IMG/VR virus record: IMGVR_UViG_3300035419_000202
Span: 1 to 64,000 of that record
From: a virus
Taxonomy: Duplodnaviria > Caudoviricetes
Reading direction: 5' to 3' (one strand)
DNA length: 64,000 nt
Under the pieces are notes generated by a model that saw only the letters and a list, made by a program, of their open reading frames with translations, searched no databases and was not told where the DNA came from. Below, one piece after another: positions 1-58,836 of the stretch (its first letter is position 1; the number at the start of each line of letters is the position of its first letter). The position numbers and the translations under genes were made by a program.

Positions 1-3000
1 ATTATTGGCAAGAAAACATATACAAGTTCAAACAAAGTACAATTTACTAATGGACTAAAAGTTAAGTTTGCTGGTAGAGTAACTCCAGAAAAATATGCTA
101 GTGATGAATGGTATGTTGAAGGTGTTGGCAGTAGCATTAGACTAGTCAGAGAACAAGATTTAGTTATACCTGCAAGTTATGTAGGTGACAAATTAGTTCC
201 ATTTGATAGCGAAGGCTTTGACAGATTGCCGTTTGGTAATGCAAGTGCGTTTGCAGAAACAAAAGATTACATTGTTATTAACAGAGCAAGTGTTGATAGA
301 AATGCTTGGACACGTTATAACAAATGGTTTCATAAAGATGTTATTGAAAAATCTGCAGAGTACAACAACGAAATAGCAAGTATTGATCAAAGCGGTAGAG
401 CTTCAAGACCAATCATTGAATTTAATGCAGGACTAAAACTATTTAATTATGGTACTCAAGCAAAAGATGATGTAGATTTAATTGATTATAAAACTACTGA
501 TGCCTTTAGTACAATAGAAGGTGGCACAGGCTACAGCATTGATAACGTTAATGTTGCTGACGGCATGCGTGTTATTTTTAACGCCGATACTGACAGAACT
601 GTAAGAGGTAAAATTTACAAAGTTAAATTTATTCTAATTGATAATATTAGACAAATTAGTTTAGTAGAAGATACTGATGCTACAGCACAAGTAAACGAAA
701 CAGTATTAATTAAAAGCGGTGACACATATAAAGGTAGGTTGTTCTATTTTGACGGCACTAACTGGAATGAGTCACAAAGAAAACTAAAAGTAAATCAGCA
801 ACCATTGTTTGACGTTTTTGACGAAAGCGATGATAGTTTTGGTACTTATAATGCAAGCACATTTAGCGGCACAGAATTATTTGCATATACACAAGGTACA
901 GGCACAAACGATGCTGAATTAGGATTTCCACTATCATACAGAGCTATTGAAAACTTTGGTGATATACAATTTAAATTTCCATTAGTAAGCGACTCATTTG
1001 TTTATGAAGAAAATAATAGTAATATTACTGTAAACGTTGAAACTGGGTATGTAAGAAAGTATACTGACCTAACATCATATGTAAGTGAAAACGGTTGGAT
1101 TAAAGCAAACAAGCCAAGCACACAAGCAATAGTAAGACAATACGTAGTAGATACTACTTTAAATGATTTTGCTGTAGATGTATTTGATCGTAGTGGCGAC
1201 CTAAACGATTTAGTTGTTAAAGTTTATGTTAACAATAGTTTTAAGAAAGAGTCAACACATTACGATATTAATAGAATAAATGGTGTTGCTTATATAACAT
1301 TTAAAACTAATTTAAAAACAGACGACATTGTATTATTAAGATGTTTTAGTAAAGCAACAAAAACAGACAACGGTTATTATGAATTAGCATATAACTTAGA
1401 ACGTAACCCTATGAACGAAAACATAGGCGATTTTACTATTGGTGAAGTTACAGATCATGTAAGCACAATAATTGAAAACACTTTCGATTATGATGGTAAT
1501 AAATTTCCAGGCGTTAGTAATTTAAGAGATATTGGCAACCTAAGTCAATTTGGTACACGTTTTGTAAAACACACTGGACCTATTGCACTTGCAAGTTATC
1601 ATCTTACAGATAAAAATGCAAATATTGTAAAAGCACTAAAGTATGCTAGACTAGAATATGCAAAATACAAAAGATTATTTTTGCAAGTAGCAGACACTTT
1701 AGGATATGATGGTCCGATCAAAGAACATGTGGACAATATCATTGCAGAAATAAACAGTCAAAAGACTGACGGAATGCCGTTTTATTTCTCAGACATGATT
1801 CCACATGGAGCATCTAAACGTACATTACATATTGTAAGAGCAAGTGATGGTATTTTTTACCCGCTTGCTACAAAGTTTGACTTATCAAACCTAAGTGAAA
1901 GAGCTGTATTAGTATACCTAAATGATAAAGCATTGTGTCACGGTTCAGATTACACATTTACAGAAGAAGGCTTTGTAAAAATATCAGCGACACTTGCTGT
2001 TAATGATGAAATAGAAATATATGAGTATGACACAACTGATGGGTGTTTTGTTCCTACTACACCAACAAAGTTAGGATTATATCCTGCTTACAAACCTGAG
2101 CTTTATTTAGACACAACACAAGAAACACCACGTAATGTTATCCAAGGACATGACGGAAGTATTAGTTTTGCTTATGGCGACTATCGTGATGATTTAATAT
2201 TAGATTTTGAAAGAAGAATTTATAACAACCTAAAACAAGCCTATAACACAGATGTATTTGATGTACATGAATTTGTTGGCGGCAACTTTAGAGATACAGG
2301 ATTTAAAAGACAAGATGTCGATAGTGCAATGGTAAGTGACTTTGTACAATGGTCAATAATTGCAGGCGATCCAAATTATACAGAAAATAATTTTTGGAAA
2401 GACACACAAACATTTAGATACAATTATAAAAATATGTCATCTCCAACAGGCAAACCTTTACCAGGTTTTTGGAGAGGCGTATACAAAGATGCGTACGATA
2501 CTGATCGTCCTCATACTCATCCTTGGGAAATGCTTGGCTTTACTATTAAGCCATCGTGGTGGGAAGCAGAATATGGTCCAGCACCGTATACTAGAAACAA
2601 CTTTGTACTTTGGGAAGATATTGAAAAAGGTCTAATCAAAGAGCCGGGTAAACCAGCAAGAGTTGACAACAGATATAAGCGTCCAGGACTAACGAATCAT
2701 ATTCCTGCAGACGAAAACGGAAATTTATTAAGTCCGTTGGACAGTAACTATGCACAAAACTTTGTTGCTGTAAGAACAAGAGATTCGTATACGTTTGGTG
2801 ATCATACTCCTACTGAAAGTGCATGGAGAAGAAGTAGTGAATATCCGTTTGCACTAATTACAAGTTGGCTGTTAAATCAACCAGCAAAGGTACTAGGAAC
2901 AGGTTTTGACTTATCAAGAATGATGAGAAACAAAACAGGTAATCTTGTTTATACTCCGTCTAATACAATTATTAGATTAAAAGATTTAGTATTTCCAAAT

Positions 3001-6000
3001 ACATATACAGACAATCAACGTGTTATTACAAGTGGTCTTGTTAACTTTATATACAACTACATAGTTAGTGATATAAACACTAGTTATAATGAGTACCAAA
3101 CAGAATTAAAAACCTTAAAGAATCAACTAGCACTTAAAGTTGGTGGCTTTACTGACAAAAGTAAATTTAAATTAATACTAGATAGCAGAACACCTTTAAA
3201 TGAAGGAAACGTATTTGTACCAGAAGAAAACTATAAACTGTTTTTAAATACATCTACACCAGTAGAAATTGCAAATTACAGCGGTGTTGTTGTACAGAAA
3301 AATACAAATGGTTATGTTATAAAAGGATACGATCAGGCAACAGCAGAATTTAAATATTTTGAACCTATTCAAGCATCGTCAGATCCTGTAATAAACATAG
3401 GTGGTATTTCAGAGTCGTTTGTAAATTGGGATAGCGGAAAACAATACGTCAAAGGACAAAATGTTCGCTTTGATAGTTTTTACTACAGAGTAAATTCAAG
3501 CCATGTAAGTGGTTCAAGTTTTGATGACACTAAAATGACTAAGTTAGCAGAGCTTCCGCTTGTAGGTGGTAGATCGAATGTACTTAGAAGAAAGTTTACA
3601 AATCGTGTTAACACAATACCTTACGGAACACTATTAACAACTACACAAGAAGTTGTAGATTTCTTGTTAGGTTATGAAGCATACTTAAAAGCACAAGGCT
3701 TTAAGTTTGAATATTACAACAAAGATATAAGTGTAGTTGAAGATTGGACATTTAGTGTAAAAGAATTTATGTTCTGGACTACACAAAATTGGGCGGCTGG
3801 TAGTGTACTAACAATAAGCCCGGGCGCACAACAATTTAAGTTCAACAGACAATACATGGTTGTAGATAACATCTTTGATACTTTCTATGATTATAGTTTG
3901 TTAAAAGCAGATGGACAGAAATTAGAAAGATCATTTAGTAGTATTGCTAGAGATACAGAAAATGATTTTGGCCTAAGTATTAAAAATACAGCAGATGGTA
4001 TTTACAGTGTTAAACTTCCGTTAGTACAAAGAGAACATGTAATATTATTAGATAACAAAACTGTATTTGGTGATGTTATATATGATCAAGAAGCAGGATA
4101 CAGACAAGAAAGAATCAAAGTTACTGGATATAGAAGTGACAATTGGTCCGGCGGATTAAACATACCAGGATTTATATACGACGAAGCAGAAGTAAGAGAC
4201 TGGACACCATATAAAGATTATGGCATAGGTAAACTAATCAAACATAAAGAGTTTTACTATGTTGCATTGGCCAATGTAACTGGCACAGAAGTCTTTGTTG
4301 ATTCACAATGGGAACGTTTAGAAAATCGTCCTCAAGCACAACTAGTGCCAAACTTTGAATACAAAATTAATCAATTTGCAGACTTTTATGATTTAGATAC
4401 AGACAATTTTGATCTTGAACAACAAAAGCATGCACAGCATTTAATTGGATATCAAAAACGCAAGTACTTAGAAAACATTATAAATGATGATGTAAGTCAG
4501 TACAAATTCTATCAAGGAATGTTACAAGACAAAGGTACAAAAAATAGTTTGGTAAAACTGTTTGATGCTCTTGCAAGTGCTGATAAAGAAAGTTTAGAGT
4601 TTTACGAAGAATGGGCAATTAGAGTTGGACAGTACGGTGCTACTGAAAACTTTGAAGATGTTGAATTTTTAATTGACGAAAAGGAAATTAAAACTAATCC
4701 ACAGCCGATAGAGCTTGTAACTAATTTACCTGCTAACGACACCGACACTATTTATAAACTCACCCCAGCAGACGTATATAAAAGACCTCAAAACTACGAT
4801 CATAAACCATTTCCGACTGTAATAGATTACAAACAGTTTACTAAAGACGCTGGATTTGTGTTTGATTCCGATGTTGCATATAGAATTAATGACAAGACAG
4901 ACATACTTACAGCAAACATTAATGTTATAGGTGCAAAGGATTATGTATGGGTAACAGGCGATCAACAGCCATGGGACGTCCTACAACACGTAACTACTAA
5001 CATTAGAGTAACTGATATAACAGGATTTGATGAAGGCGCTGATGCGTTTGTAGGTGTAGATAATCCAGGCGGAACATTTGAGTTTGATAGAGCCCACAAT
5101 TTTAAAAGAGGCGATATCATTGGATTAAAAAATACTTCAACACAGAACGACGGATTTTATACAGTAGAAGTTGTAAAACCTACTAGTGTAAACGTTCTTG
5201 CTGGAGCAAATAACAGCATAGAAGATCTAACTGATATCAACGGCTATGTAAGTATTTTACGATCAGTAAACTTTGACACTATAAAAGATGCAAACGTTGT
5301 ACTAGAAGATAAGATAGTTGAAGACCAAAAAGTTTGGATCAACGGCTCAAGCAAAAACGATTGGGCTGTTGCTATACAAGAAAATGTATATGATGATAAG
5401 AAGCATTATAATAATCCTAGCGATTATGATATTACATCTACATACGAATTTGGTTCTGCTATGTCATCAAACAAAGCAAATACTAGAATTGTGCTTGGAG
5501 ATCATAGTGCAAATAGTTTGAATGGTAATGTGTACACTTATCAAAGAGGATCAAATCTTAGAGAATTACTTTATGAAGCAACACTTAATTTAGATACCGA
5601 CACATATCCAGTAGCAGACGGACATCGCTTTGGAGCAGACATTGATATTAGTTCCGATGGTAAGTACCTTATTGTAGGGTCAAGCACAGCAAGTGATGTT
5701 GCTTCTAACTATCGAGACACATATAGTAAAACTATAGAATACGCAGAAAATGACACTGTCAAATATAACGAAAACTATTGGAAGGCTGTAAGAACAATTA
5801 CTCCTGAAAGTGCAAGTATTGCATTTAGTACATTTGACAGTTATGCAAACTTTGAAAGATCCAGTGACAGTAGTTTACTAACACTTATACTACAGGGTAG
5901 TCCATACTTACCAAACACACAAACAGATCATTTATTGATTGCAGCACCGTTTGATCAGTATAGAGGTTCTAAGCCACAGGACAAATTAGTTCTTAACTGG

Positions 6001-9000
6001 AACAATTATACAAACTTTAATAGAAACACAGGTAGTACAACTCCTGTAGAAGTATTCCCACAAGGTATTAATCCCCAAAATACAGCATCACAATATACAG
6101 AGCCAACATCAACATTTATAGAAGGCGAGCATGTTATTGTAGAAAAAGTTGATGCTGTACTACTAGTAGAGCCATTTACTGATCCTCCTGAAGAAGGAGA
6201 TATTATTGATACAGTAGGCGGCTCAGCAACAGTATACAAAGCCTTCCAAAGAGACTTTAAACTTGTAATGTATATAAAAGATACAAATGGAGTATTTGGA
6301 CCAACTGGAACTGTTACAAACAGCAACGGCACACTAATCGGTGAGTATACACAACCAAACTACAATGGCACAACTGGAGCAGCTGGCGGTTGGTGGTATA
6401 TTAATACAGGTACAAATTATCTAACATCAGATGAATTTACAGAAGCAAAAGATTTTGGTGTACCAGGTTATGGACTAGTATATCAAGACGTACTAGTGTA
6501 TGATGAAAATACTCAAACATATGCAAGGACTATACCAAACTTTTATGCAAATGGTTTAGATGATGTTCAAAACACTATATTCCCAACTAGAGATGAACCA
6601 GTGTTTGTTAGTGTTCTTTCACACAGAGGCGCGGCATATATAAATGTTGACAACGATGGTGTACAAAACATTTTAGACAACAGATGGTTAATGAGAGTTC
6701 CGTCAGCTCTAAATGGAGAAATTACACAAGCAGGAGATCAATTTAGGGCATATATTAATGACCAAGCTGATGCACCAGACTTTACTTTACTAGGTATTGA
6801 TCCTAGTTATATTAACGACAACTTACACACTGTTGTAGATATGTGGGAAGGTTATATTGACTTTACATTTACTAAAACACAGGGTGCTGATGTTGATATG
6901 TTATCAGACCAAGACATTGACACTGGTGACTTTTTTGAGCCTGCTTATGAAGGAAAAGTATTTTCAGACTTAAATGGAAATATTGTAAACATAGGCGGCG
7001 CCGCAGGCGACTTTATTAGAGATGAAATTTCCGGTGCAAGAGGCCGTGTTGCATATTATATAAGACGTGCAACCGACCAAGGTAGAGTATACCTCAAAGA
7101 TGTTACAGGAACATTTACGCAAGGCAACAGATTATTACTTGAAACACTTGAAGGACCTTCACAGTTACCAAACCAACGTATTATGGGTCCAATTAATAAA
7201 ATTTCTGTAACAGGAAATAACACAGGTAAAATTGCTGTTATGCAAAAGGGAACTAGTTTTCCTGCACACCCTGAATCATATGGCGGCTTAGATCAGTTTA
7301 GAGATTTAAATGCGTTTGCACATATTAATAAAGAGTTTTGGGTTTACAAAGAAAACTTAACAGAGGCTGGTGCAGAAGCAGAGGCAAGTATACCTAGTAC
7401 AGCAAACAGTGACTGGCGACTTGTTTACAATTTACCTGTAGACACAAGCGGTTCACAAGTAAGTAAGCCAGCTAACCAAGGTGTATACAGTATCTTCAAT
7501 AGAGTAGGAAGTACATGGACCAACAGAGGAACATGGACTATTCCTGGAAGTACTACAAACAGTAATGTTGGTAAACAAGTTGCTGTAACACAAGACGGCG
7601 ACTTGTATAGATTTTATGTAGGTTCAAAAGAAAACCTAACAGTTATCAAACATGGTACTGACAAGTATGGTAAAAATTATAATTATGCATTAGACATCAA
7701 TCCTCATTATAGAGGACCGTACACAGCAGATGTTGCATACAAAACAGATGAAATAGTTTTATATAACAATCAGTTATATTCAGCACTTACATTTGTTAAA
7801 GGTGTAGTGCCTACTGACTCACTAAAATGGACAACGTTAGACAGCACAGTTAACTATCTTCCAACATTACCAAATGCTGTAAACATTTATAATGATCCGG
7901 TGTTTAATGATTTAGGCGAAGGCGTCTTAGACTTTACACAAGAAATATCAGTAAGTGAAAATGGGCAAGTTCTTGCAATTAGTGTTATTACTGACACAAG
8001 TGTTGACCCTGATAACAAAGTTCTTGTTTATAGAATTTTAGACGACAGATATGTTTTTGATCAAACTATTGTTGCACCAGTTTCAAACACCGGTTGGGGT
8101 AGTAGCATAAGTTTAAGCGAAGATGGCGATACTTTAGTAATTGCAGATCCTGAAAGTGACGTACAGGGCTTTAACACAGGCAAAGTATTTGTGTATGCAA
8201 AAGTAAATGGTACTTTTGAATTACATCAAACATTGTCAGGCACTGGTACACTTAGTGAAAAGTTTGGCACCAAAGTTAGTATTTCAAAAGATATAATTGC
8301 TGTAACAAGTGGCAATGGCGATATTATTACTGAAACAACATTTGACGATGGTACAACATCATTTGACGATACATTTACAACATATCCTGACAAGAGAATA
8401 GACAGTGGTAGTGTTAGACTTTATCAGAAAATTAAAGATGCATTTATACTTGCGGAAGAATTAGACTATGACGGTGACGACAATGTACTAGTTGCAAGTA
8501 GATTTGGTGAGCAAGTTTTAATTAACGACAACCACGTTTATGTAGGTGTTCCGGCAGATCCAAACACATATTATGATGAAGATATTAATCCGGGTAGTTT
8601 TGTAGATTATCAAGTTACACAAAACAAAAAACCATGGACACTATTAAGAACACCAAACGAAGTTGTTGATATACAAAAAATTAAATCAACATTTTTATAT
8701 GATGTAAAAACAAACCAATTATCTACATATTTAGATTACATTGATCCTGTACAAGGCAAAATTGCAGGACCAGCAGAACAAGAGTTAACATTTAAATCAA
8801 ACATAGATTTTGCACGTTACAATGTTACAACATTGCCAGACTACTTTAGTGAAACTGCTAATTGGGAAGAACAACATGTTGGTAAACTATGGTGGGATTT
8901 ATCTACTGCTAAATTCTTTAATGTTTATCAAGAAGATATTACTAACCAAGCAAACAACTGGAGCAAGTTAATACCTAATTACACAGTTGATGTTTACGAA

Positions 9001-12000
9001 TGGGTAGAAAGTAATATTGTACCTGAAGACTGGGATACACAAGCAGAAACAGCCGCAGGCTTTGCAAAAGGTATAAGCGGATTTTCTAAATATGGCAACG
9101 ATGCATACAGTCAAAAATTAGTTTACGATCCTGTATCACAAACATTTAGTGACAAGTATTATTTCTGGGTTAAAAATAAATTAACAGTTCCGGTAATGGA
9201 TTCAAGAAAAATTAGTGCATCTGAAGTTGCAAATCTAATTGCTGACCCAAGAGGACAAGGTTATAGTTTTGTAGCATTGTTAAGTAATGATAGATTTGTT
9301 CTTTACAACTGTGAAAGTTTAATTAAAGATAAAGACATTGCTTTACATGTAAGTTACTATACACAAGATACACAAGAACAAAATAGACATTTTGAATATA
9401 GTTTGTTAACAGAAGGACTAGAAACAAGTGTACCTAAAGCAGACATAGAAAGAAAATGGATTGACAGTTTACTTGGTTACGATTCAAGAGGACGTATTGT
9501 TCCAGATCCTGAGTTAAGTGCAAAAGACAAATATGGTACATTAAATAGTCCAAGACAAAGTTGGTTTGTTAATAGACAAGAAGCATTTAAGCAAGTTGTT
9601 GAAAGAGCAAACTTAGCACTTCGAGAAACTATCATTGTAGATGACTTTAGTTTTACTACACTTAACAGTGCTGATGTCCAACCGTTTGTTACAGACAGAA
9701 CATACGATTATAAAATTGATACATTAGAAGAATTAGATTTTATTGGTATTAATAAAATTAAGACAGCAAAACTACAAGCATCAGTACATGGTGGTGTAGT
9801 GAATGATATTAGAATTATTGATACTGGTAGAGGATATAACGATCCTACATATGACAATACTACAAGTGTTGTAAGACACGGGCCAAGTTTTGAATTATTT
9901 GGCAACGGTAGTGGATTAGACTTTAATTTAGAAATTAATAATCTAGGACAAATTAGTAAAGTAAACATTATTAACGGTGGTTCTGGATATGATGAAAATT
10001 TAAGAATTGAAGTAAGGCCACTTACAGTATTAGTTGAAAATGATAGCACAGTTAATAACAAATGGGCTATTTACGAATGGAATAAATCATCAAGTCTTTG
10101 GAATAGAGTAAAATCACAAAGTTACGATACAAAAGAATATTGGGATTATGTAGACTGGTATGCAACAGGTTATACACAATTTACAAGAATTGATCATAGA
10201 GTAGATGAAAGTTATCAGTTAGCATCGGCAAATGCTAAGATTGGCCAAATTGTTAAGATTGATAATATAGGTAACGGTGGCTGGTTGTTATTAAAACGTG
10301 TTGCAGATACTAATTCTTTAGACTATACAATTGATTATGAAACTATTGGTAGAGAAAACGGTACAATAGAAATTAGTAGCAAAATTTATAATGTAATAGA
10401 AAATACAGTTGGTTATGATTTACTAGGCTACGACAATAGATTCTTTGATACTGAACCAGTAACTGAAGGTAGACAAATACTAACAGCACTAAAGAACGAT
10501 ATATTTGTAGATAACTTAGCAATTAAATGGCAAGAACTATTCCTTGCAAGTGTTAGATATGTATTGTCAGAACAACAAAATGTTGATTGGGTATATAAAA
10601 CAAGTTTTGTAAAAGCAAAACATAATGTAGGTGAACTAGAGCAAAAAATAAATTATCAAAATGATAACTTGAGTAGTTACAATGATTATATTAATGAAGT
10701 TAAACCTTACAAAACAAATATACGTGAATATCTAAGTTCTTATGAAAATGTAGATAATACTAATACACAAACTAGTGATTTTGATGTTCCTCCTTATTAT
10801 GACTATACACAAAACGGAATAAAAACTAAATCTGTAAAAATTAGAGATAACGACTTAATTGGTGCAGATGCATTTTTTGATGAATATCCATACCAGTCAT
10901 GGAAAGAAAATTATGGATATAAAGTTACAGCAATTAATATTTACGATGGCGGAAGCAAATATACATATCCACCAACAGTAACTATTGCAGGCGGTGGCGG
11001 CACTGGCGCAACAGCAAGAGCATATATTGGCGCAGGCAAAGTAATTAAAATTGAAGTAACAAATAGCGGATCAGGTTATACTAGTGCGCCAACTGTTACA
11101 CTAAGTGGATCACAAGCAGACGGTTCTACAACAGCAATAGCATCAGCACAAATTGGCGACGGTGTTGTAAGAAGTTTACATGTTGGTATTAAGTTTGACA
11201 GAGTATCTGGACAATACTTTATTACAACATTACCTGAAACAGAAACATTTACAGGTACAGCAATAAATGATAAGTTTGATTTAAAATGGCCAATTAATTT
11301 AAAACGTAATAAAATAAAAGTTACAATTAATGGTACATTATTATTGCGTAGTGAATATACGTTTACTAATGTAGATGACAAAACATATACATATGATAGA
11401 CAAAAAGGTCAAATAGCATTCAGTAAAACTCCTGAACTAGGAGATGTTATTTTAGTTGAATACGAAAAAGACCCTGCAATATTAAATGCACAAGATAGAA
11501 TTAATCATTTATATAATCCTACAACAGGAATGCTTGGTAAAGACTTAGCACAATTAATGGTTGGTGTTGATTACGGCGGTGTTGAAGTTAAGAGTTTCGG
11601 CTTTGAAGGAACATCAGGATGGATGACCGACGAATACGGAACAGATACTTGGGACAGTTACGATAATACATTTGAAGATGAAATTTTCTTTGCAGATGGA
11701 ACTACTGTTGCTATTGAACTTGCTAAACCTTTAGAAGATGGCGTTGAATATAATGTTTACTTGAAGCGTTTTGGACAAACAAAAGCAATTAGAATAGACG
11801 ATCCTAGTTACAATACTGTTCCTACTAATCCTTTAGCAATGATGCAAACACTTGTTGGCGACGGTGTAACACAAACAATCAATTTAGCTGAGAATGATAT
11901 TCAAGTTAATGACGGTGACATTGTTACTATTAGAAAAACAACTTCAGATGGAAGTTTCAAACCAGACGGTGACAGTTATGATACTATACTTGAAGGCGGA

Positions 12001-14073
12001 GCATTAGAGTACGGTAATGCTGGCGGTATTAATGCTGATGATATTATATTAGATGGTGACTTGTTTGTTACTCCGTTAACATCAGGCGGTCCAGAAGAAT
12101 TAGTAAATGGTCAAGTAATGGACTCTGTGAATATTACAGTTTATGAAAGAAACGGTGAAGGCCAAGGTCAGATATATAATCAGAATTACTTAACTGACGG
12201 TACAACTACAACTTACCCATTAGGACTAGCACCACACAGTAATGACGCTGTAATTGTTAAACTAGGTAATACTATAGTTGATAAAGCTCAGTATTCATTA
12301 GACTACACAGCTCTTACAGTAACATTTAATAATGCACCTGCAGAAGATCAAATATTAACAATTCTTACAGTTGGAATCAACGGACAAAATATTATTGACC
12401 TTGGTGTATTGTTTACAATCGAAGGACAAAGTTCGTATGTAACAAATCTTTTATGGGATGACAAGTATGCTGTTTACCTTAGAAAAAATGGACAAGAGCC
12501 AGATGGCCCTGAACTAATTGCTAAAAAGAGTGATACAGGGTTTATTGAATTTGTGTTTAGTCCAGTAGCACCGCCTGCTGGCACAAGATTAGATTATGAA
12601 ATTTATGCTGATAACACACTTATAAATTATAGCAAAATACAAAAAGATAATATTATTGCTGACGGATCAAGTGTAACATATAACTTGTCAACTAATGCAA
12701 TATATGAAACACCTGCAGAGTTCTTTAGCATTGTAGAAGTTAATGGTGCTATTAAAAAGCCGGGCTACTCAAAAGTATTCCATATTACTGAAGCAACGAA
12801 AAGAACATATACTTTAGAAACATTCCAAGTACAAGAAGCAACGCTAAGTGCTGCTGATACAGAAGTTTATTTAAACGGTAAACTGTTAAACCAGCAAGGT
12901 AGTTATACAGTTAACATTGGTGAAAGTAGTATTACAATAGCAAGTAATCTTTTGTCAGAAGGTGATATACTATCTGTTTACTTTAGAAACGGCGATTACC
13001 GTATAGTTGGAAATCAACTTACATTTACTGATTTACCAGCAGAAGATGATATTATAAATGCTTATACATTTAGTAATCATGATATATTAGACATTAACCG
13101 CATAAGTTATGATGTTATTAATAGAAGTGCATTAACACCTGGATCAGATAACTATTCAGCATACCATCAGTTAACAGGTGGTAGAGTATTGTTAAATCAA
13201 CCAGCCAGCGGTGTCGAATATGTTTGGATATTTAAAAATGGTTCTATGTTATCGCCAAGTGTAGATTACAAGTTACAAGACAACATGAGAATTATTGAAC
13301 TTGCTAATGAGCCTAGTGAAAATGATACAATAGATATTATACACTTTACAGCACCAATTAGCACACCGACTATTGCATGGCAACAGTTTAAAGATATTCT
13401 TAACAGAACACACTACAAACGTGTTGACAACAACGATGGTGTAAGACTAGCACAAGACTTAGAATTTAATGATTTAAGAATTGTTGTAGTTGAAGGAGCA
13501 GATAGATTACCAACTCCGGATAAACGTGCTAACAAGCCAGGCATTATTTGGATCAATGGAGAACGTATTGAGTATTTTGCAAAAACAGGTAATGATCTAA
13601 GACAATTACGCAGAGGCACACTAGGCACAGGTATTGCAACAACACATAAAATAGGAACTAGGGTATACGGTGCTGGAGTAGAGAAAAATATTCCATATGC
13701 TGATCAAAATATAGTTTGGTCACCAGTTGATGCTGTAACTGAAGGACAAACTGAATTTACACTTGATTTTACACCTAACAGTGTAAATGAGTTCGAAGTT
13801 TTTGCTGCAGGAAAGAGGTTAAATAAGGCTGCTATAGCAACATTTGATCCCGCACTTGCTATTGACTCACCCGAAGGTGACGTAAATACACCAGCAGAGT
13901 TCACTGTAAATGGCAATACATTAACACTAACAAGTCCAATGAAAGCAAATCAAAAGTTAGTTGTTATTAGAAAAGTAGGTAAATTGTGGACAGATCCGGG
14001 CACTCCATTAAAAGATGCTCAAAACGACATTGGTAGTTTCTTACGTGGAGCAAGAAGTGAATTACCCGAATAA
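1..14073 (+). CDS. Giant virion structural protein (baseplate-wedge/tail-associated type), 5'-truncated, at least 4,690 aa
   Basis: Frame 1 is open from base 1 ([18 protein letters not shown]...), so the TTG at 226 is not the true start. Contains FG-GAP-like repeats ([36 protein letters not shown]), CBM5/12-like modules ([23 protein letters not shown]), GGSGY/T4-like wedge repeats ([16 protein letters not shown]) and C-terminal VYLNG/DY beta-sandwich repeats; lies upstream of fibre genes. Confidence 0.8.
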
Positions 14074-14080
14074 ATATACT
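14071..14080 (+). promoter_or_regulatory. Late-promoter-like motif TAAATA(TACT) overlapping the stop codon of the giant gene
   Basis: TAAATATACT; the identical 10-mer is on the minus strand at 47954-47963; resembles the T4 late promoter TATAAATA. Confidence 0.55.
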
Positions 14081-18628: not shown

Positions 18629-18636
18629 TATAAATA
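18629..18636 (+). promoter_or_regulatory. T4-type late promoter consensus TATAAATA
   Basis: Exact TATAAATA immediately after the TAG of the upstream gene, 37 nt before the next ATG with AGGA between. Confidence 0.6.
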
Positions 18637-21220: not shown

Positions 21221-24200
21221 ATGGCTGTAGTTGGAACAAATGTTACCGCGGCAAATTATAATACAATCCAAGGTAAGATAGATGACGTTTTAGGTGCTGG
21301 AGACGGAGCACAAAACGGTTACGGCCAATCTTTACAAAGTTCACAAAAAAGCGCAGGCGATGTAATTGCTGCAACAGATATGCAACAGTTATACAACGAC
21401 CTTATCAAAGCAAGATTACATCAAACAAATCCAGTAACATGGTCCAATGCTGACGGACTTGCTGCACCAAGTGCGGCTGAAAATGTCGGTGCAAGTGCCG
21501 CAGACATTGGAGACGAAACTCCTCTAACTATTTTCTCACTTGTTGCGTCAACAGAATATATGATTGTTGATACAGGTGATTCTGATTTTACATTAATAGG
21601 TGCTTCTGCTAACGAAGCAGGAATAAAATTTACAGCAACAGGACCAGGAACTGGTACAGGTATTGCAAAACTTTCACCTACAAGTGCTAACGCAGAAGAC
21701 GATCAAGCAGAGGGATATTTAGACTTTGAAGCAGCGGCAGATGAAATTGTAGCAGATATAAATCAACATGATGCTGATAACTTTACAATATCAACAGTAA
21801 CCAGCACACGTACTAATCCGTGGGGCGGCGGCGACTTTGCTAGTCCTGGTTCTAAAATTACCAACGAAGTAGAAATTACTTGGCTTAATTCTGATCAAAG
21901 AAGATACTTCTTTAACACAGGCGGTGAAATAAGATTTAATGCTGACCTTACAGGTGCTGTAACAGCAAATTCAAAAGAAGATAATTGGAACACTGTATTA
22001 GCCAACATGGGTACAATTACATTTGGTAAAAGCGCAACAACAGCAGATGGTTCGAGTCCAGGATCTGGTTCAGCAATTGGTAATTATTATGCAGATTGGA
22101 ATCTAACAAGTTCGAGTAATAGAGCGGTAATATATATAAAAAATGGCTCAGGCATATATGCTGACATTCAATATAGAATTGAAGCATGGGAAGTTGCTGC
22201 CGGTAATGCAACCACACCAAGCACACTAAGATTTAGAATAGAATTTCAAGATAACGATTACAGTAGTAGTCCTAGTGATGTAGATGAATATATCGATAAT
22301 GACATCGAAAGCAATGTAAAAATTTATCATGATACAGTTTTAGGAATACCAGCACCGTCACTCACAACAATTACAGCATTAGATGACGGCATACAAAATT
22401 CTGTTTCTGCTAACTTAACAAGAAATCCAGCAACAGGGTCTATTGACGAAGGCGAATCTGTAACGTTTACATTAAGTGTAAATCCTTCAGCTAATGGCAC
22501 TACAATAGATTATACATTGAGTGGTGTAGGTATAAGTGTTGGTGATCTTGACAATAGTCAAGGCATGGGCGGTGTATTTACTATTAATAATGGTATAGGA
22601 AGTGTAACTATAACTGCAAAGAATGACGAAACTTCAGAAGGAGCAGAAACATTGACTTGTAGTGTTCCTGCATTTGGATTGCAACAAAGTATACAAATAA
22701 ATGATACTAGTACTTCACCATCACCACCTGTGGTTAACACATACAATATAACAGGACCATCAAGTATTAATGAAGGAAGCACAGGCACCTATAACGTAAC
22801 AACCAACGACAATGATGGCACATATTATTACTCAGTAAGTCCGACAGGTGTAATGACCACAAACAATGGAAGTTTCAGTGTTACAGGCGGCAATGGATCA
22901 TTCAATCTCACAGCAGCTAATGATGCTGTAGTTGGAGATAACGAAACTATCACAGTATCATTTAGAACAGGTGGAGTAGGTGGAACAATAGTAGATAGTA
23001 TGAGTACATCTATTGTAGATACTACTGTGCCTGCAAGAACGGAAAATTTATATGCAATAGAATATTATGCTCTTGCAGACCTTGATGCCGGAGGAATGGG
23101 TAATGACGCATTTCAAACTTACGGAACGACCCAAAACAGGACAAGAATAGTTTCTGCAAATTCAGTCAGTCGTCCATCATTGCAAAATATTAGTGAAACA
23201 AGATACTATGGCGGCTTTGACACTGGCTATACGTGGGCTAAACAAGCTAACGACAATAGAATTGATATTGCTGTAGTTGGCGGCGGAGGCGGCGGCGCAG
23301 GTGTTTCAGTAGATAGTAGTAGAGAAGGCCCTGCAAGTGGCGGCGGCGCCGGCGGCGTTGCATTTAAGACACTACTGGACGGGAATATTCCAAATACAGC
23401 AAATATAATTGTTGGCAGAGGCGGAGATGGCTCACGCCAAGAAGGCGGGTCTAATGATTACAACTTAGGTCGCGCTGGAGGTATAAGCACTTTTTCATAT
23501 AGCTCTACTATAGATAAGTATTCATTCACATTTGGTAAGGAAAGTTTTGTAATGCAAGGCACTAACTTACCATCTGTGTGGGTCTGGGAAGGCAACGTAA
23601 TTAGGACGGCAATTAACGATTTTGCTGGTTCTTTTGTTTACAACGGTGTTACGTATGAACGCGGCACTCAAGAAGCATCTTTTAATTGGGGAAGTAATCC
23701 CCTAGAACCAGAATTAGCTTTTTACTATAGAATAAAAAGAGCTGGAGGAACAATAGATGCCGGTCCTGGCCAAAACAGCGGCTTTTTTGGCGTCACCGAT
23801 ATCTCAGGCGTAGGAGGGCTTGGTGGTCCTGCATCTGGCGGAGATTCAAACTTTGTAGGTGCTGCGGGTCTTAATACTTTAACTAATTTTAATACTCTTC
23901 GATCAAGCACTGGCGGAACCATAAGCACAGGAGATGGTATTCAAGCAAACTTACCTGACGGTGATACACTTCCTGCTAGTGGTACTTTGGCAGATGAAAA
24001 CGTAGGTAACAGAGTAAAAGAAGGCGCTAGAACAAACATCAGCGCCAACAAGATACTATTACAATATCTAGAAGTGCAAGGCGGCACTGCGGCTTGCCAA
24101 ATACCTAATTACGGAACCTACTGTAACGGTTTAGGAGTTGGTGCAGGAGGCGGAGGTATGTCTCAGCGTCAACAACCGTCTAGAGGCGGCGCAGGTCATC

Positions 24201-24709
24201 CTGGGGTAGTTGCTATAGCAAGATATAGTTCTACAGAACCTGCAAAATCGATAAACATTTATACAGCAAACGGTGTTGTAGGCATAACAACCTCTTTTCC
24301 AACAGTCTATGGTGCAGGCTGGAACGGTTCAACTATAGGCACAAATACAAATAATTTTACTACTACTAGCGGCAGTCATTCATTAGTAAGTGCAGTTATA
24401 ACCAGGATCGTATCAGCTCCTACAGGCACAACGAATATGAGTGGTATCATGTTTTTTGTGGAATTCAAGTTAAGTGGCAATGTACCGTTTGAAAGATTAC
24501 ACAGCGTTGATGTTTCACAAGGTACTAACAGAAATATTACTTTTGTAAAAACACAGCGATCAGCAAGAGGTTTCGATGGAACAAACACTACATTTACTCT
24601 TAGTACGCAAGACGGGCTACCACCATTAGTAACGTCGGATGACAGTAACGGATTTATTTGGGTTTTGAATCAGGGCAACTGGAATTTTACACTAAGGACT
24701 TTTGAATAA
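21221..24709 (+). CDS. Virion structural / putative receptor-binding protein with Ig/Calx-beta-like and glycine-rich modules, 1162 aa
   Basis: N-terminal paralog domain; SIDEGESVTFTL...DETSEGAETLT and SINEGSTGTYNV Ig-like repeats; Gly-rich VVGGGGGGAG...GGGAGG and GAGGGG...GGAGHPGVV.I.RY segments. Confidence 0.7.
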   Translation: MAVVGTNVTAANYNTIQGKIDDVLGAGDGAQNGYGQSLQSSQKSAGDVIAATDMQQLYNDLIKARLHQTNPVTWSNADGLAAPSAAENVGASAADIGDETPLTIFSLVASTEYMIVDTGDSDFTLIGASANEAGIKFTATGPGTGTGIAKLSPTSANAEDDQAEGYLDFEAAADEIVADINQHDADNFTISTVTSTRTNPWGGGDFASPGSKITNEVEITWLNSDQRRYFFNTGGEIRFNADLTGAVTANSKEDNWNTVLANMGTITFGKSATTADGSSPGSGSAIGNYYADWNLTSSSNRAVIYIKNGSGIYADIQYRIEAWEVAAGNATTPSTLRFRIEFQDNDYSSSPSDVDEYIDNDIESNVKIYHDTVLGIPAPSLTTITALDDGIQNSVSANLTRNPATGSIDEGESVTFTLSVNPSANGTTIDYTLSGVGISVGDLDNSQGMGGVFTINNGIGSVTITAKNDETSEGAETLTCSVPAFGLQQSIQINDTSTSPSPPVVNTYNITGPSSINEGSTGTYNVTTNDNDGTYYYSVSPTGVMTTNNGSFSVTGGNGSFNLTAANDAVVGDNETITVSFRTGGVGGTIVDSMSTSIVDTTVPARTENLYAIEYYALADLDAGGMGNDAFQTYGTTQNRTRIVSANSVSRPSLQNISETRYYGGFDTGYTWAKQANDNRIDIAVVGGGGGGAGVSVDSSREGPASGGGAGGVAFKTLLDGNIPNTANIIVGRGGDGSRQEGGSNDYNLGRAGGISTFSYSSTIDKYSFTFGKESFVMQGTNLPSVWVWEGNVIRTAINDFAGSFVYNGVTYERGTQEASFNWGSNPLEPELAFYYRIKRAGGTIDAGPGQNSGFFGVTDISGVGGLGGPASGGDSNFVGAAGLNTLTNFNTLRSSTGGTISTGDGIQANLPDGDTLPASGTLADENVGNRVKEGARTNISANKILLQYLEVQGGTAACQIPNYGTYCNGLGVGAGGGGMSQRQQPSRGGAGHPGVVAIARYSSTEPAKSINIYTANGVVGITTSFPTVYGAGWNGSTIGTNTNNFTTTSGSHSLVSAVITRIVSAPTGTTNMSGIMFFVEFKLSGNVPFERLHSVDVSQGTNRNITFVKTQRSARGFDGTNTTFTLSTQDGLPPLVTSDDSNGFIWVLNQGNWNFTLRTFE

Positions 24710-37489: not shown

Positions 37490-38042
37490 ACATTTTTGTG
37501 TACCTATTTTAGTTAAAGATAATTTTTGTTTGGAAGAAATTCCTGCAATGAAAAAAATTATTGATAACGAAGTAGTAACTAACACGACATTAGATGCACG
37601 TATACAAACAACACATCACACTAACCAACAATTATTTCAATATAGAGAATTTGATAATTTTAATCAGGCTATGTTACAAGAGGCTTTTCACTTTATGAAA
37701 GATCTTGGTTATGCTGGAGAGAGTGTTGGTATTACAAATATGTGGGCAAACAAAGTAGGCAAGCATGACTATCATATGCCGCATGTACACGGTGGAGCCA
37801 TTGTTACAGGTGTGTATTATTTAGATGCTCCTAAAGATGCAAAAATTAACTTTAGTACAGCAAGTTATGATTTAGAAATACATCCTGAAGAGCAAACAGA
37901 ATATAACGAAACTAAAGTATCTTACGATTGTAAGCCTGGTAGATTAATTTTATTTAAAGGAACAACAAAACATTGGTGTGACAGTCATTTACAAGATGAC
38001 TACAAATACACACTAGCATTTAATGTTGCACGGCGTCTATGA
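37479..38042 (+). CDS. Putative Fe(II)/2OG oxygenase (TIGR02466-like)
   Basis: WANKV...HMPHVHGGAIVTGVYYL...PGRLILF.G..KH...Y.LAFN. Confidence 0.8.
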   Translation: MINKHFCVPILVKDNFCLEEIPAMKKIIDNEVVTNTTLDARIQTTHHTNQQLFQYREFDNFNQAMLQEAFHFMKDLGYAGESVGITNMWANKVGKHDYHMPHVHGGAIVTGVYYLDAPKDAKINFSTASYDLEIHPEEQTEYNETKVSYDCKPGRLILFKGTTKHWCDSHLQDDYKYTLAFNVARRL

Positions 38043-39022
38043 GTAACTACGAACAAATACCATGGCAAGATATAACAGAGTTTGGCCAGAAAACTATGTT
38101 AAAGAGCCATCTTTTTAACGTTTCTTGGATACTGGCTAGATTTTGTAATTATTCATGCAGTTATTGCTGGCCATACGCAAGATCTAGTACCCCTGACCAC
38201 CAAGATCTAGAATTGTACTTAAACACTATAGATAGTATAAAGACACAAGCTCGTGCAAATGGTTTTACTGATTTCCACTTTAGTTTTTCTGGAGGTGAGC
38301 CTACAGCCTATAAATACTTTAACAAGATAGTTGAGCATTATGCTAACGATAGTGAACCAGAGTATCAAAGCATACACATGACAACAAATCTAAGTCCGGG
38401 CGAAAAATGGTGGGCTAGATTTATTGAAAATACTCAAAGTCTTGAACGTAGAAGTATAACCGCAAGTTATCACGCAGAATTTGCAAACGAACAAGAGTTT
38501 GGCGATAGATGCTTGCAACTAATAGATGGAGGTGTTTATGTTACGATTAATCAAGTTATGGTTCCAGAAATTTTCGGAGTTCTTTATGAAAGGCTGGAAC
38601 GCTTTGCCGCCAGAGGTATTAGCGTCACTCTCAAGCCCCAGTCCGATCCTACCGCCTCCCACGTGGTACATGGATACACTGAAGACCAGATCGCAACAAT
38701 GCGAACTGGATTCCCACAAACATGGAAAGGCAAAGCCGTTCCACAAGTCCTACTCAAAGATAATAAAGGAGTAGAGTACGAATTAGATCAAGCAGAAAGA
38801 TTTAATGCGTTTGGCTTTAATAAATTTAATGGTTGGGAATGTAACGCAGGGTATCAAAGTTGCGTTATACGTAGCAATGAAGTAAAGCGGGCATATAGTT
38901 GCCACCAAGAAGCCTTAGGCACGCTTACAGACGGTTTTACGCTGTTTAAGACACCATCTAAGTGTGTTACTAACACTTGTGTAAGTAGTGCAGATAGCAA
39001 AATACCCAAGAGGAAGATATGA
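38039..39022 (+). CDS. Radical SAM enzyme with C-terminal Cys (twitch-like) domain
   Basis: CNYSCSYC, FSGGEP; C-terminal CNAG...C...C....C. Confidence 0.9.
   Translation: MSNYEQIPWQDITEFGQKTMLKSHLFNVSWILARFCNYSCSYCWPYARSSTPDHQDLELYLNTIDSIKTQARANGFTDFHFSFSGGEPTAYKYFNKIVEHYANDSEPEYQSIHMTTNLSPGEKWWARFIENTQSLERRSITASYHAEFANEQEFGDRCLQLIDGGVYVTINQVMVPEIFGVLYERLERFAARGISVTLKPQSDPTASHVVHGYTEDQIATMRTGFPQTWKGKAVPQVLLKDNKGVEYELDQAERFNAFGFNKFNGWECNAGYQSCVIRSNEVKRAYSCHQEALGTLTDGFTLFKTPSKCVTNTCVSSADSKIPKRKI
38538..38774 (+). CDS. Candidate overprinted +1-frame protein (78 aa) nested in the radical SAM gene
   Basis: GGAGGT at 38528-38533, ATG 38538; coincides with a 50% GC patch and abnormal C-ending codons in the host frame. 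Confidence 0.5.
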   Translation: MLRLIKLWFQKFSEFFMKGWNALPPEVLASLSSPSPILPPPTWYMDTLKTRSQQCELDSHKHGKAKPFHKSYSKIIKE

Positions 39023-52666: not shown

Positions 52667-53831
52667 TTTTGATATTAAAGAATTACCTAACTTTAAATTT
52701 TCGTTGCAAGAACTAAAAGACTATTATGCTAAAGTATCTCAGTATGACAATTTAAAGTGGCAACCAGATAGTACAAATACATTAGATCACAAAGTAAATG
52801 ATGTATACAGTTGGGCTATACAAAGTAATTTAAAGGATGCTACAAAGCCTTGTCCACCGTATGACATTAAACATGATACTGAAGTATTAGGCACGTTTGA
52901 TAACCCTACAGAGCTTGTATTTGGTTTTGGCAAGTATATTGTAGATGCAATACCCGATGTTAGGCAAACAGTTATAAGTGCCCATCCACCTAATACAGTT
53001 ATACAACAACATATAGATAATACTGAGTTTGTAAAAGTACATATACCTATACAGACAAATGATCAAAGTTATTTTGTATTTGGCGATTCAAAGTATAATT
53101 TACAAGAGGGTAAAGCATATCTTATTAATACTACTAATCAACATGGAACAATTAACCAAGGCGATACAGACAGAATACATTTAATATTTAAAATACCTAT
53201 CGACAATGTAGATGAACTACTAAACACAGATTGGATATTAGATCCAGCCCAAATAAACTTTGATTGTAAAAAAATAGAAAATGTAAAATTTAATTTTGAT
53301 GAACTTAAAGAATACTATAATGACCTTGTAGATAATTTTGACTACTTGAAATGGACAATGCCTGAAGTTTCAGGAACTAATCTTGAAGGATTATATGGTT
53401 ACGCAATATTAACTAATTGTGAAAACGTAGACGAACGTCCATTACCTCCGGGTATGCGTAAAGACAAAAAAGCATTTGATCCTATTATAAAACCTACTAA
53501 GATGCTCAAAGGGTTTGCTAAAAAACTATATGATCAAATTCCTTATATAGAAGAATTAGTAATTACTGGACATCCTCAAAATTCAGGAATACCCCCGCAT
53601 GCAGATAAAGATGAACATGTAAGAGTACATATTCCGTTGTATGCTAATAACGATTCGCATTTTATTATTAACGAACACCCGTATGTATTAGAACCTAATA
53701 ATGTTTACATTGTAAATACAAAACGCATACACACTACAATTAACAAAGGCTCTACAGATAGAATCCATTTACATTTTAAAATTCCCATAGGAAAAATAAA
53801 TATTTTTTTAAGGACACAAATAAACGTATGA
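52656..53831 (+). CDS. Tandem two-domain Asp/Asn beta-hydroxylase-like dioxygenase
   Basis: Two complete motif sets: IQQHID..VHIPI..QHGTIN..RIHLIF and IPPHAD..VHIPL..IHTTIN..RIHLHF. Confidence 0.85.
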   Translation: MMFDFDIKELPNFKFSLQELKDYYAKVSQYDNLKWQPDSTNTLDHKVNDVYSWAIQSNLKDATKPCPPYDIKHDTEVLGTFDNPTELVFGFGKYIVDAIPDVRQTVISAHPPNTVIQQHIDNTEFVKVHIPIQTNDQSYFVFGDSKYNLQEGKAYLINTTNQHGTINQGDTDRIHLIFKIPIDNVDELLNTDWILDPAQINFDCKKIENVKFNFDELKEYYNDLVDNFDYLKWTMPEVSGTNLEGLYGYAILTNCENVDERPLPPGMRKDKKAFDPIIKPTKMLKGFAKKLYDQIPYIEELVITGHPQNSGIPPHADKDEHVRVHIPLYANNDSHFIINEHPYVLEPNNVYIVNTKRIHTTINKGSTDRIHLHFKIPIGKINIFLRTQINV

Positions 53832-58819: not shown

Positions 58820-58825
58820 TATTTA
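58820..58825 (-). promoter_or_regulatory. Late-promoter-like TAAATA
   Basis: ATAAATATAT upstream of AGGAG SD and ATG 58785. Confidence 0.5.
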
Positions 58826-58836
58826 TCATAAAAGAG

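Follow-up and report, generated by a model that had tools for sequence, protein, structure and literature searches.

A gene for a radical S-adenosylmethionine (SAM) enzyme in a marine T4-like phage probably carries within it, in the +1 reading frame, a second gene: a real, clade-specific overprinted gene of an orphan family that has gone uncalled, and whose product we infer to be translated. The sequence comes from the 81.6-kb IMG/VR virus record IMGVR_UViG_3300035419_000202 (Duplodnaviria; Caudoviricetes), of which positions 1 to 64,000, here called the window, were analyzed. The radical SAM gene, hereafter the host gene, occupies 38039..39022 on the + strand. The nested open reading frame (ORF) occupies 38538..38774 on the same strand, with 78 codons followed by a TAG stop; an in-frame ATG also stands at 38526, and would give a protein of 82 amino acids. 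A preliminary description of the window, made from its letters alone, had reported this ORF, from 38526 or 38538 to 38774, and its peptide, and both are confirmed as it wrote them. Its central suggestion was that a selected +1 gene skews the choice of synonymous codons in the radical SAM gene around it. This is supported by tests on homologues. Here, one stretch of DNA would deliver two proteins, a radical SAM enzyme in frame 0 and a small orphan protein of about 70-82 amino acids in frame +1.

Distribution of the open frame among relatives

From hundreds of homologues, 155 unique IMG/VR genes were chosen as a comparison set. These form two clades. The near clade (88 unique sequences) shares 72-83% amino acid identity with the enzyme of the window, and the far, or sister, clade (67 unique sequences) shares 63-68%. 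The median proportion of fourfold-degenerate sites that differ within the near clade (the 4-fold p-distance) is 0.51 outside the overlap, where saturation is 0.69. The synonymous sites of these genes have therefore been extensively turned over.

Two features can be followed across this set, the open +1 frame and a patch of the host gene where the G+C fraction at third codon positions (GC3) is raised. In 84 of the 88 near-clade sequences, host codons 188-210 have a GC3 of 0.35-0.61, where the remainder of the gene has about 0.3. Each of these 84 patch-bearing sequences has 67 or more open codons in the +1 frame; a frame kept free of stops is what the preliminary description had proposed to look for in homologues. 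The four exceptions belong to two separate nested lineages, in which A/T-ending codons (GC3 0.04-0.13) specify the same enzyme residues and the +1 frame meets a stop after 6 codons. In the far clade, GC3 is about 0.33, and +1 stops appear within 1-31 codons. Across the 155 sequences, patch and ORF are either both present or both absent. Stops in the +1 frame and A/T-ending codons, which the preliminary description had named as findings that would speak against a nested gene, occur only where the patch and the ORF are both missing.

A tree calculated from the enzyme minus the overlap region makes the ORF and its patch ancestral to the near clade, with two losses. Their joint absence from the sister clade and from the two nested lineages is the pattern that would be expected of a clade-specific overprinted gene. 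The frame would have originated by overprinting in the stem lineage of a single clade of marine T4-like myoviruses, would then have been kept open by selection, and would have been lost twice.

Mosaicism is strong among the homologues: genes with about 80% identity elsewhere have blocks in common that match at 93-99% of nucleotides. This indicates frequent recombination within the radical SAM gene among co-occurring phages. A far-clade copy was also found on JBDNIA010000194.1, a 6-kb contig in a Crocinitomicaceae metagenome-assembled genome; its protein is 100% identical to that of three IMG/VR viral contigs, and it is probably a phage contig that was mis-binned.

Selection for an open +1 frame

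A frame that attracts attention because it is open is, of course, open where it was first seen. The present locus was picked in just this way, from the window. Tests on homologues are independent of that choice except for shared ancestry, which was addressed by counting evolutionary events.

For a stop to arise in the +1 frame, a host codon must have T at its second position and must end either in A before a purine or in G before A. Selection for an open frame is visible in how such codons are used. In host codons 166-212, none of 654 Val, Ile and Leu codons that stand before a purine ends in A. Outside the overlap, about 53% do so (515/966 upstream and 301/564 downstream). Inside the overlap but before a pyrimidine, A-ending codons for these amino acids are found in 96 of 272 cases (35%).

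The choice depends on the neighbor even at single sites. At Leu185, TTA and CTA are found solely before CAA or CAG (23/23), and never before GAA or AAA (0/55). At Val209, GTA is used solely before C or T (67/67), and GTT or GTG before purines (9). At Ile217, ATA appears solely before C (12/12). The sequence ATG followed by A is never found inside the overlap, while 54 sequences have it just upstream. Purine-ending codons are nevertheless common in the patch when the second base is not T, with ACA or ACG at Thr168 and CCA or CCG at Pro175, Pro199 and Pro203. Therefore, no general preference for pyrimidine endings or for G+C lies behind the pattern.

When synonymous events at risk of creating a stop were reconstructed by parsimony on the gene tree, the core of the overlap (codons 166-212) was found to have had none that created a stop and 56 that did not. 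Outside the overlap, 42 such events created a stop and 30 did not (Fisher p = 1.5e-14 for core against outside). In the tail of the ORF (codons 213-232) the corresponding ratio is 0:4 (p = 0.036), which supports stop avoidance there weakly. Taken over all 84 sequences together, the +1 frame is free of stops for 71 codons, counted from codon 162. The next-longest run that is stop-free in every sequence is 29-30 codons in the five alternative frames, and in the sister clade also no run exceeds 30.

The start of the nested frame

Internal initiation would take place at ATG 38538 behind a ribosome-binding site of the GGAGG type. The candidate for that site is a Shine-Dalgarno (SD)-like GGAGGT at 38528..38533 (+), which lies 4 nt before the ATG, as had been described; its GGAGG core lies 5 nt before.

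A start codon is kept at the head of the frame in all 84 patch-bearing relatives, and so the conservation of start that the preliminary description had asked about is indeed present. Eighty of these have an ATG, either at the position of 38538 or 2-4 codons upstream; the other four have TTG behind GGAGGA. This is so in a region that comprises 49 haplotypes with differing host residues. In most sequences the +1 frame has stops at host codons 160-161, and the ATG follows within 1-5 codons. The ATG at 38538 is supplied by a host Tyr/His-Val pair (TAT/CAT GTT). Where Phe-Val or Tyr-Ile replaces that pair, an ATG 2-4 codons upstream is usual, made from Asn followed by a codon that begins with G. 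The motif ahead of the start is strong in 32 of the 84 relatives (38%) and weak in 23; the strong fraction for control +1-frame ATGs of the same genes is 4.5%.

Synonymous constraint on the overlap

Constraint on the host gene is site-specific and is concentrated in a core at 38537..38677 (+). This corresponds to host codons 166-212 and to residues 1-47 of the nested ORF, which hold an amphipathic helix, a DLPPE motif and a Pro/Ser stretch. The normalized ratio of observed to expected synonymous change is 0.62-0.8 at 38540-38650, and rises to 1.0-1.15 from 38660 on. The 4-fold p-distance is 0.32 inside the overlap against 0.51 outside. Changes that leave the host residue as it is but alter the nested one have a p-distance of 0.44 against 0.64-0.67.

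The sites that resist change correspond to hydrophobic, Pro and charged residues of the nested protein. The host third positions that serve nested residues L2, K6, K11, D22, L23, P24, P25, E26 and L31 show 0-2 changes where 7-15 would be expected. Fewer third-position changes are also seen at I5, L7, F16, V27, P36 and P40, while neighboring sites are at or above expectation. These residues form the hydrophobic face of the N-terminal helix and an invariant DLPPE-(V/A)-(L/S)-x-x-L motif.

What follows the core is a variable, basic tail, 38678..38774 (+), which is probably disordered and whose stop varies among relatives, giving frames of 67 to more than 100 codons. The reduced synonymous rate that the preliminary description anticipated is therefore found over the first two thirds of the ORF (about 45-50 codons), and is not found over the last third or so.

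The G+C patch

The G+C counts given in the preliminary description (100 in 38561-38760 and 48 of 80 in 38591-38670) are exact, as is the tally of codons, in which 17 of the 25 host-frame codons at 38591-38665 end in G or C, 12 of them in C. The patch extends over 38555-38755. Segments of 100 nt within it peak at a G+C fraction of 0.56-0.57, against a mean of 0.35 for the window (standard deviation 0.055). Just 0.15% of 100-nt segments reach 0.56, and the patch is one of four in the 64 kb.

The host residues themselves, through codon positions 1 and 2, account for about half of the excess in G+C. The remainder is a third-position peak at 38603..38671 (+), with GC3 of 0.61 against 0.31 in the rest of the gene; at about 38625-38665 GC3 is 0.63, against 0.2-0.4 elsewhere in the host gene. 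Here, host codons of the form NCC (GCC, CCC, TCC, ACC) give the +1 peptide its CCN and TCN codons. The open frame begins in A/T-rich sequence, codons 166-187, where GC3 is 0.23-0.36.

The patch may thus be read as the footprint of the nested gene, whose second codon positions are the synonymous third positions of the host. Because of this register, C-ending host codons spell the Pro, Ser and Leu of the motif D-L-P-P-E-(V/A)-(L/S)-x-x-L and of the Pro-rich linker. The T-ending host codons, in turn, would supply the hydrophobic residues that are conserved along one face of the amphipathic helix at the N-terminus.

The remaining three patches with at least 56% G+C (23197-23451, 23724-23888 and 24061-24251) all lie inside an ORF at 21221-24709, which encodes a 1162-amino acid protein without a PHROG match. 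They encode runs of Gly (GGGGGAG, GGGAGG, GAGGGG), and because of this poly-Gly coding they reflect amino acid composition rather than synonymous sites.

Two antisense ORFs, 38519-38746 (-) and 38584-38757 (-), of 75 and 57 amino acids, also cross the patch in the window. As candidates for the selected frame they were rejected, since host TTA and CTA codons interrupt both in many relatives. They look like by-products of the patch.

A late-promoter motif inside the host gene

T4-type late promoters carry the motif TATAAATA, with NATAAATA in cyanomyoviruses (PMC2984593). An exact TATAAATA is found inside the radical SAM gene at 38309..38316 (+), and the nested start follows 221 nt downstream. 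The whole window has 3 copies of the motif where 11.6 are expected, a depletion of about four-fold, and 13 copies of the looser ATAAATA where 38.8 are expected. Among relatives that have the ORF, 82% also have the motif at 38309; it is missing from all four ORF-less members of the near clade and from all 67 far-clade sequences. The TAT AAA codons that it spans show hardly any synonymous variation. A scan for sigma-70 promoters and terminators gave none upstream of the nested ORF on the + strand.

Elsewhere in the window, ATAAATA stands at 14070-14076, 18630-18636 and 53796-53802 (+) and at 58820-58826 (-), in each case 19-37 nt upstream of a gene (14095, 18673, 53828 and 58785, respectively). 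These copies are consistent with functional late promoters of the phage.

The likeness to T4-type late promoters lies in the exact motif, in its depletion in the window, and in the several copies close ahead of genes. The copy at 38309 differs in lying within coding sequence and far from the nested start, and is a putative promoter. It may drive late transcription of the nested gene, or its target may be genes downstream. The operon mRNA could serve for translation of the nested ORF, and so, possibly, could a late transcript beginning behind TATAAATA at 38309.

Weighing the evidence

Several observations weigh against the view that the nested frame is a gene. The presence and absence of the ORF amount to only about three evolutionary transitions, and so the co-distribution with the patch and the promoter motif is not strong statistically. 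The within-site switches of codon with context come from a limited number of independent lineages. About one third of relatives have no recognizable SD motif. Constraint is missing from roughly the last third of the ORF, which has 11-13 third-position events per codon and a variable stop. Synonymous suppression is moderate, and dips about as deep are found elsewhere in the gene. An OLGenie-like ratio of changes nonsynonymous in both frames to those synonymous in the nested frame (dNN/dNS) comes to 0.73 (bootstrap 95% interval, 0.49-1.13), which is not significant; controls give 0.79 and 1.05. Last, the internal TATAAATA is 221 nt from the nested start, where other copies are 19-37 nt from theirs.

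Of the rival explanations considered, the least improbable holds that the C-ending patch was selected for a different reason, for example as a cluster of codons that tunes the speed or the accuracy of radical SAM translation. The open +1 frame would then be a by-product of a stretch with few A/T-rich stop triplets. The patch does coincide with a stretch that ranks among the best conserved of the enzyme, and G+C-rich sequence does open several frames, as the two antisense ORFs illustrate. The moderate suppression and the insignificant dNN/dNS fit such tuning as well. However, residues 28-58, 78-92 and 250-273 are equally conserved and have neither a GC3 peak nor suppression, and the antisense frames are not conserved open. 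Tuning would not account for purine endings that are frequent except where a +1 stop would result, with a choice that flips with the next base. Nor would it account for an ATG that is conserved and yet relocates, or for an open frame that reaches upstream into the A/T-rich codons 166-187. We consider this explanation unlikely.

The same stop-free +1 frame would be needed if the ribosome arrived in it by a programmed frameshift rather than by initiation. The product would be a truncated enzyme, consisting of a radical SAM core of about 165 amino acids, with an alternative C-terminus of 70-80 amino acids. SD-like GGAGG sequences inside genes can stimulate +1 shifts, as in prfB, and the internal GGAGG here could do likewise. 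Such a shift would require a place to occur, and no slippery or hungry-codon site is conserved; codons 160-166 vary both in nucleotides and in residues, across the 49 haplotypes. A frameshift has no need for the ATG or TTG that is kept at the head of the frame, and in most sequences stops interrupt the +1 frame 1-5 codons before that ATG. Together, these facts make a frameshift quite improbable.

The preliminary description itself offered a constraint on RNA structure as an alternative, having noticed the stem halves GTTCCAG (38561) and CTGGAAC (38594), which exist as given. More generally, the region might hold a structured RNA or some other nucleic acid signal, such as a small RNA target, a protein-binding site or a recombination signal. 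A single-sequence fold is somewhat more stable than that of shuffled sequences (z = -2.4 on the + strand and -2.3 on the - strand), and the pyrimidine-to-pyrimidine changes fit G-C/G-U pairing. Among relatives, no conserved structure is seen. RNAalifold, applied to 34 sequences, gives only -6.75 kcal/mol and 15 pairs, of which one is compensatory, and the two stems noticed at the outset are not conserved. A signal in RNA would leave the neighbor-dependent choice of codons and the conserved start codon without explanation. It seems to us very improbable.

Least credible is a recent recombinant tract, still decaying, from a donor (host or phage) of higher G+C, as in the psbA mosaics of cyanophages and as the preliminary description allowed, for although the homologues are clearly mosaic, cellular genomes hold no close homologue that might be a donor (the best has 31% identity, save one phage-like contig of a metagenome-assembled genome, at 63%), the patch dates back to the ancestor of the clade and has outlasted about 0.9 substitutions per synonymous site beyond its borders, and tract-bearing sequences differ from one another inside it, never by changes that create a stop.

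The predicted nested protein

The preferred reading, that the ORF is an overprinted gene, gives it a product of 69-82 amino acids in most relatives, with 78 amino acids and an isoelectric point of 9.7 in the version from the window. AlphaFold2, given 37 sequences, predicts a helix at residues 2-22 (predicted local distance difference test score, pLDDT, about 92) and another at 25-32; a Pro/Ser linker then leads to a weaker helix at 41-57, and the tail is disordered (pLDDT below 50). Helix 2-22 is amphipathic, having a hydrophobic moment of 1.55 where shuffled sequences have 0.68 (p = 0.009). The single conserved Cys (C55) is imposed by host ATG-C codons.

Searches for relatives of this protein outside the overlap gave little. 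The peptide has no match in Pfam, PHROGs or NCBIfam; a word-based search of 5.8 billion predicted proteins gave no candidate; a profile search of 1.84 billion representatives gave no homologue. One profile match, to a 416-amino acid tandem-repeat protein with a recurring DLPPQVAALL-type unit, was judged spurious. Foldseek, comparing the predicted fold with BFVD, returned nothing below E = 1. ORF-less phage records of up to 282 kb were searched for a copy standing by itself, and only the homologous place came up, with 4-7 stops. The INPHARED phage set gave no match by DNA or protein search, although near relatives are possibly not in that set. Orphan status is, of course, what overprinting predicts.

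Our best guess as to function is that of a small accessory protein, comparable to others that viruses have gained de novo by overprinting, which would use its helix and its LPPE motif to dock on a partner or on a membrane surface. The preliminary description had suggested that the peptide might be membrane-active, a partner, or a substrate resembling a ribosomally synthesized and post-translationally modified peptide (RiPP). The last of these is weakened, because many lineages have kept the enzyme and have no ORF. A RiPP precursor that obligatorily accompanies its maturase was rejected in particular, as 67 sister-clade sequences and two near-clade lineages have the enzyme without the ORF. A more ambitious possibility is that this protein, of recent birth and expressed late from an internal promoter of its own, works together with the radical SAM/hydroxylase/glycosyltransferase locus around it, either as a carrier or substrate peptide for decoration by these enzymes or as a switch that gives the enzyme a new direction late in infection. 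This must be regarded as a long shot. If true, it would be a dated case in which a phage invented a pathway component by overprinting the gene of an enzyme.

The host gene and its setting

The radical SAM protein has 327 amino acids, with a CX3CX2C motif at residues 36-43 and a Cys-rich C-terminus, and matches PF04055 in Pfam (E = 1.2e-10). Only the radical SAM core is recognized; with CX3CX2C starting at residue 36, no space remains for an N-terminal RiPP recognition element. Every NCBIfam match falls under its cut-off, and no curated subfamily fits. The enzyme is conserved over its full length across the 155 unique IMG/VR homologues.

Genes in the window include T4-like tail-fiber and baseplate genes, a structural ORF of 4690 amino acids and a large locus for the modification of sugars or peptides. 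The giant ORF (at least 4690 amino acids; window positions 1-14073, +) extends past the 5' end of the window. Downstream of it stand several tail-fiber-like genes that share an N-terminal module (phrog_15511/14394).

Implications

Genes nested out of frame are never reported by gene callers. The present case suggests that one phage sequence with a local anomaly in G+C and codon use can be enough to point to such a gene, and that relatives from metagenomes suffice to test it. It would also offer an unusually clean history of de novo gene birth in a large double-stranded DNA phage, with one origin, hundreds of diverged descendants and two losses. At both losses, the host codons revert to A/T endings. 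The late-promoter motif may have been recruited together with the nested gene. If the frame is translated, a widespread group of marine T4-like phages gains a new small protein, and with it a model of how two frames share constraint.

Comparison with known systems

Overprinted genes are a known kind in phages, with Rz1 in Rz and phiX174 E and K as examples; it is this orphan family that was uncalled before. The closest formal parallel is Rz1 in Rz, the spanins of the lambda type. There too, a small Pro-rich protein is encoded wholly inside a phage gene, in the +1 frame, with its own start and ribosome-binding site. Rz1 is expressed late, and the nested ORF putatively so. The differences begin with the host gene, which here is a radical SAM enzyme (PF04055) and not an i-spanin. 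The nested protein lacks a lipoprotein signal peptide and the lipobox [LVI][ASTVI][GAS]C, and has no uninterrupted hydrophobic core. In the alignment of nested proteins, the N-terminus is interrupted by conserved Lys at 6 and 11, and usually also at 14. An embedded o-spanin of the Rz1 type was rejected, given the radical SAM host gene and the missing lipobox Cys.

Overprinting has delivered accessory genes de novo in many viruses, including many RNA viruses (reviewed in PMC8227390). With phiX174 E in D and K in A/C, and with MS2 L, the nested ORF shares restriction to a clade, orphan status and a lower synonymous rate in the older frame. It also shares a short helix followed by a disordered tail, with a composition imposed by the host frame. 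It differs in sitting in a large (>150 kb) T4-like double-stranded DNA phage, where coding space is not limiting. It differs also in that environmental genomes allow its birth to be assigned to a specific branch, and two losses to be traced after it.

Overlaps have been detected elsewhere through synonymous constraint, and through tests of ORF length in single genomes (PMC6188560). The tests applied here are of the same kinds as those behind overlaps found with Synplot2 and OLGenie, namely for conservation of an ORF, for synonymous suppression and for selection in the alternative frame, where the OLGenie-type ratio is not significant. Here, however, the strongest signal is not a deep drop in synonymous change but the neighbor-dependent avoidance of stops.

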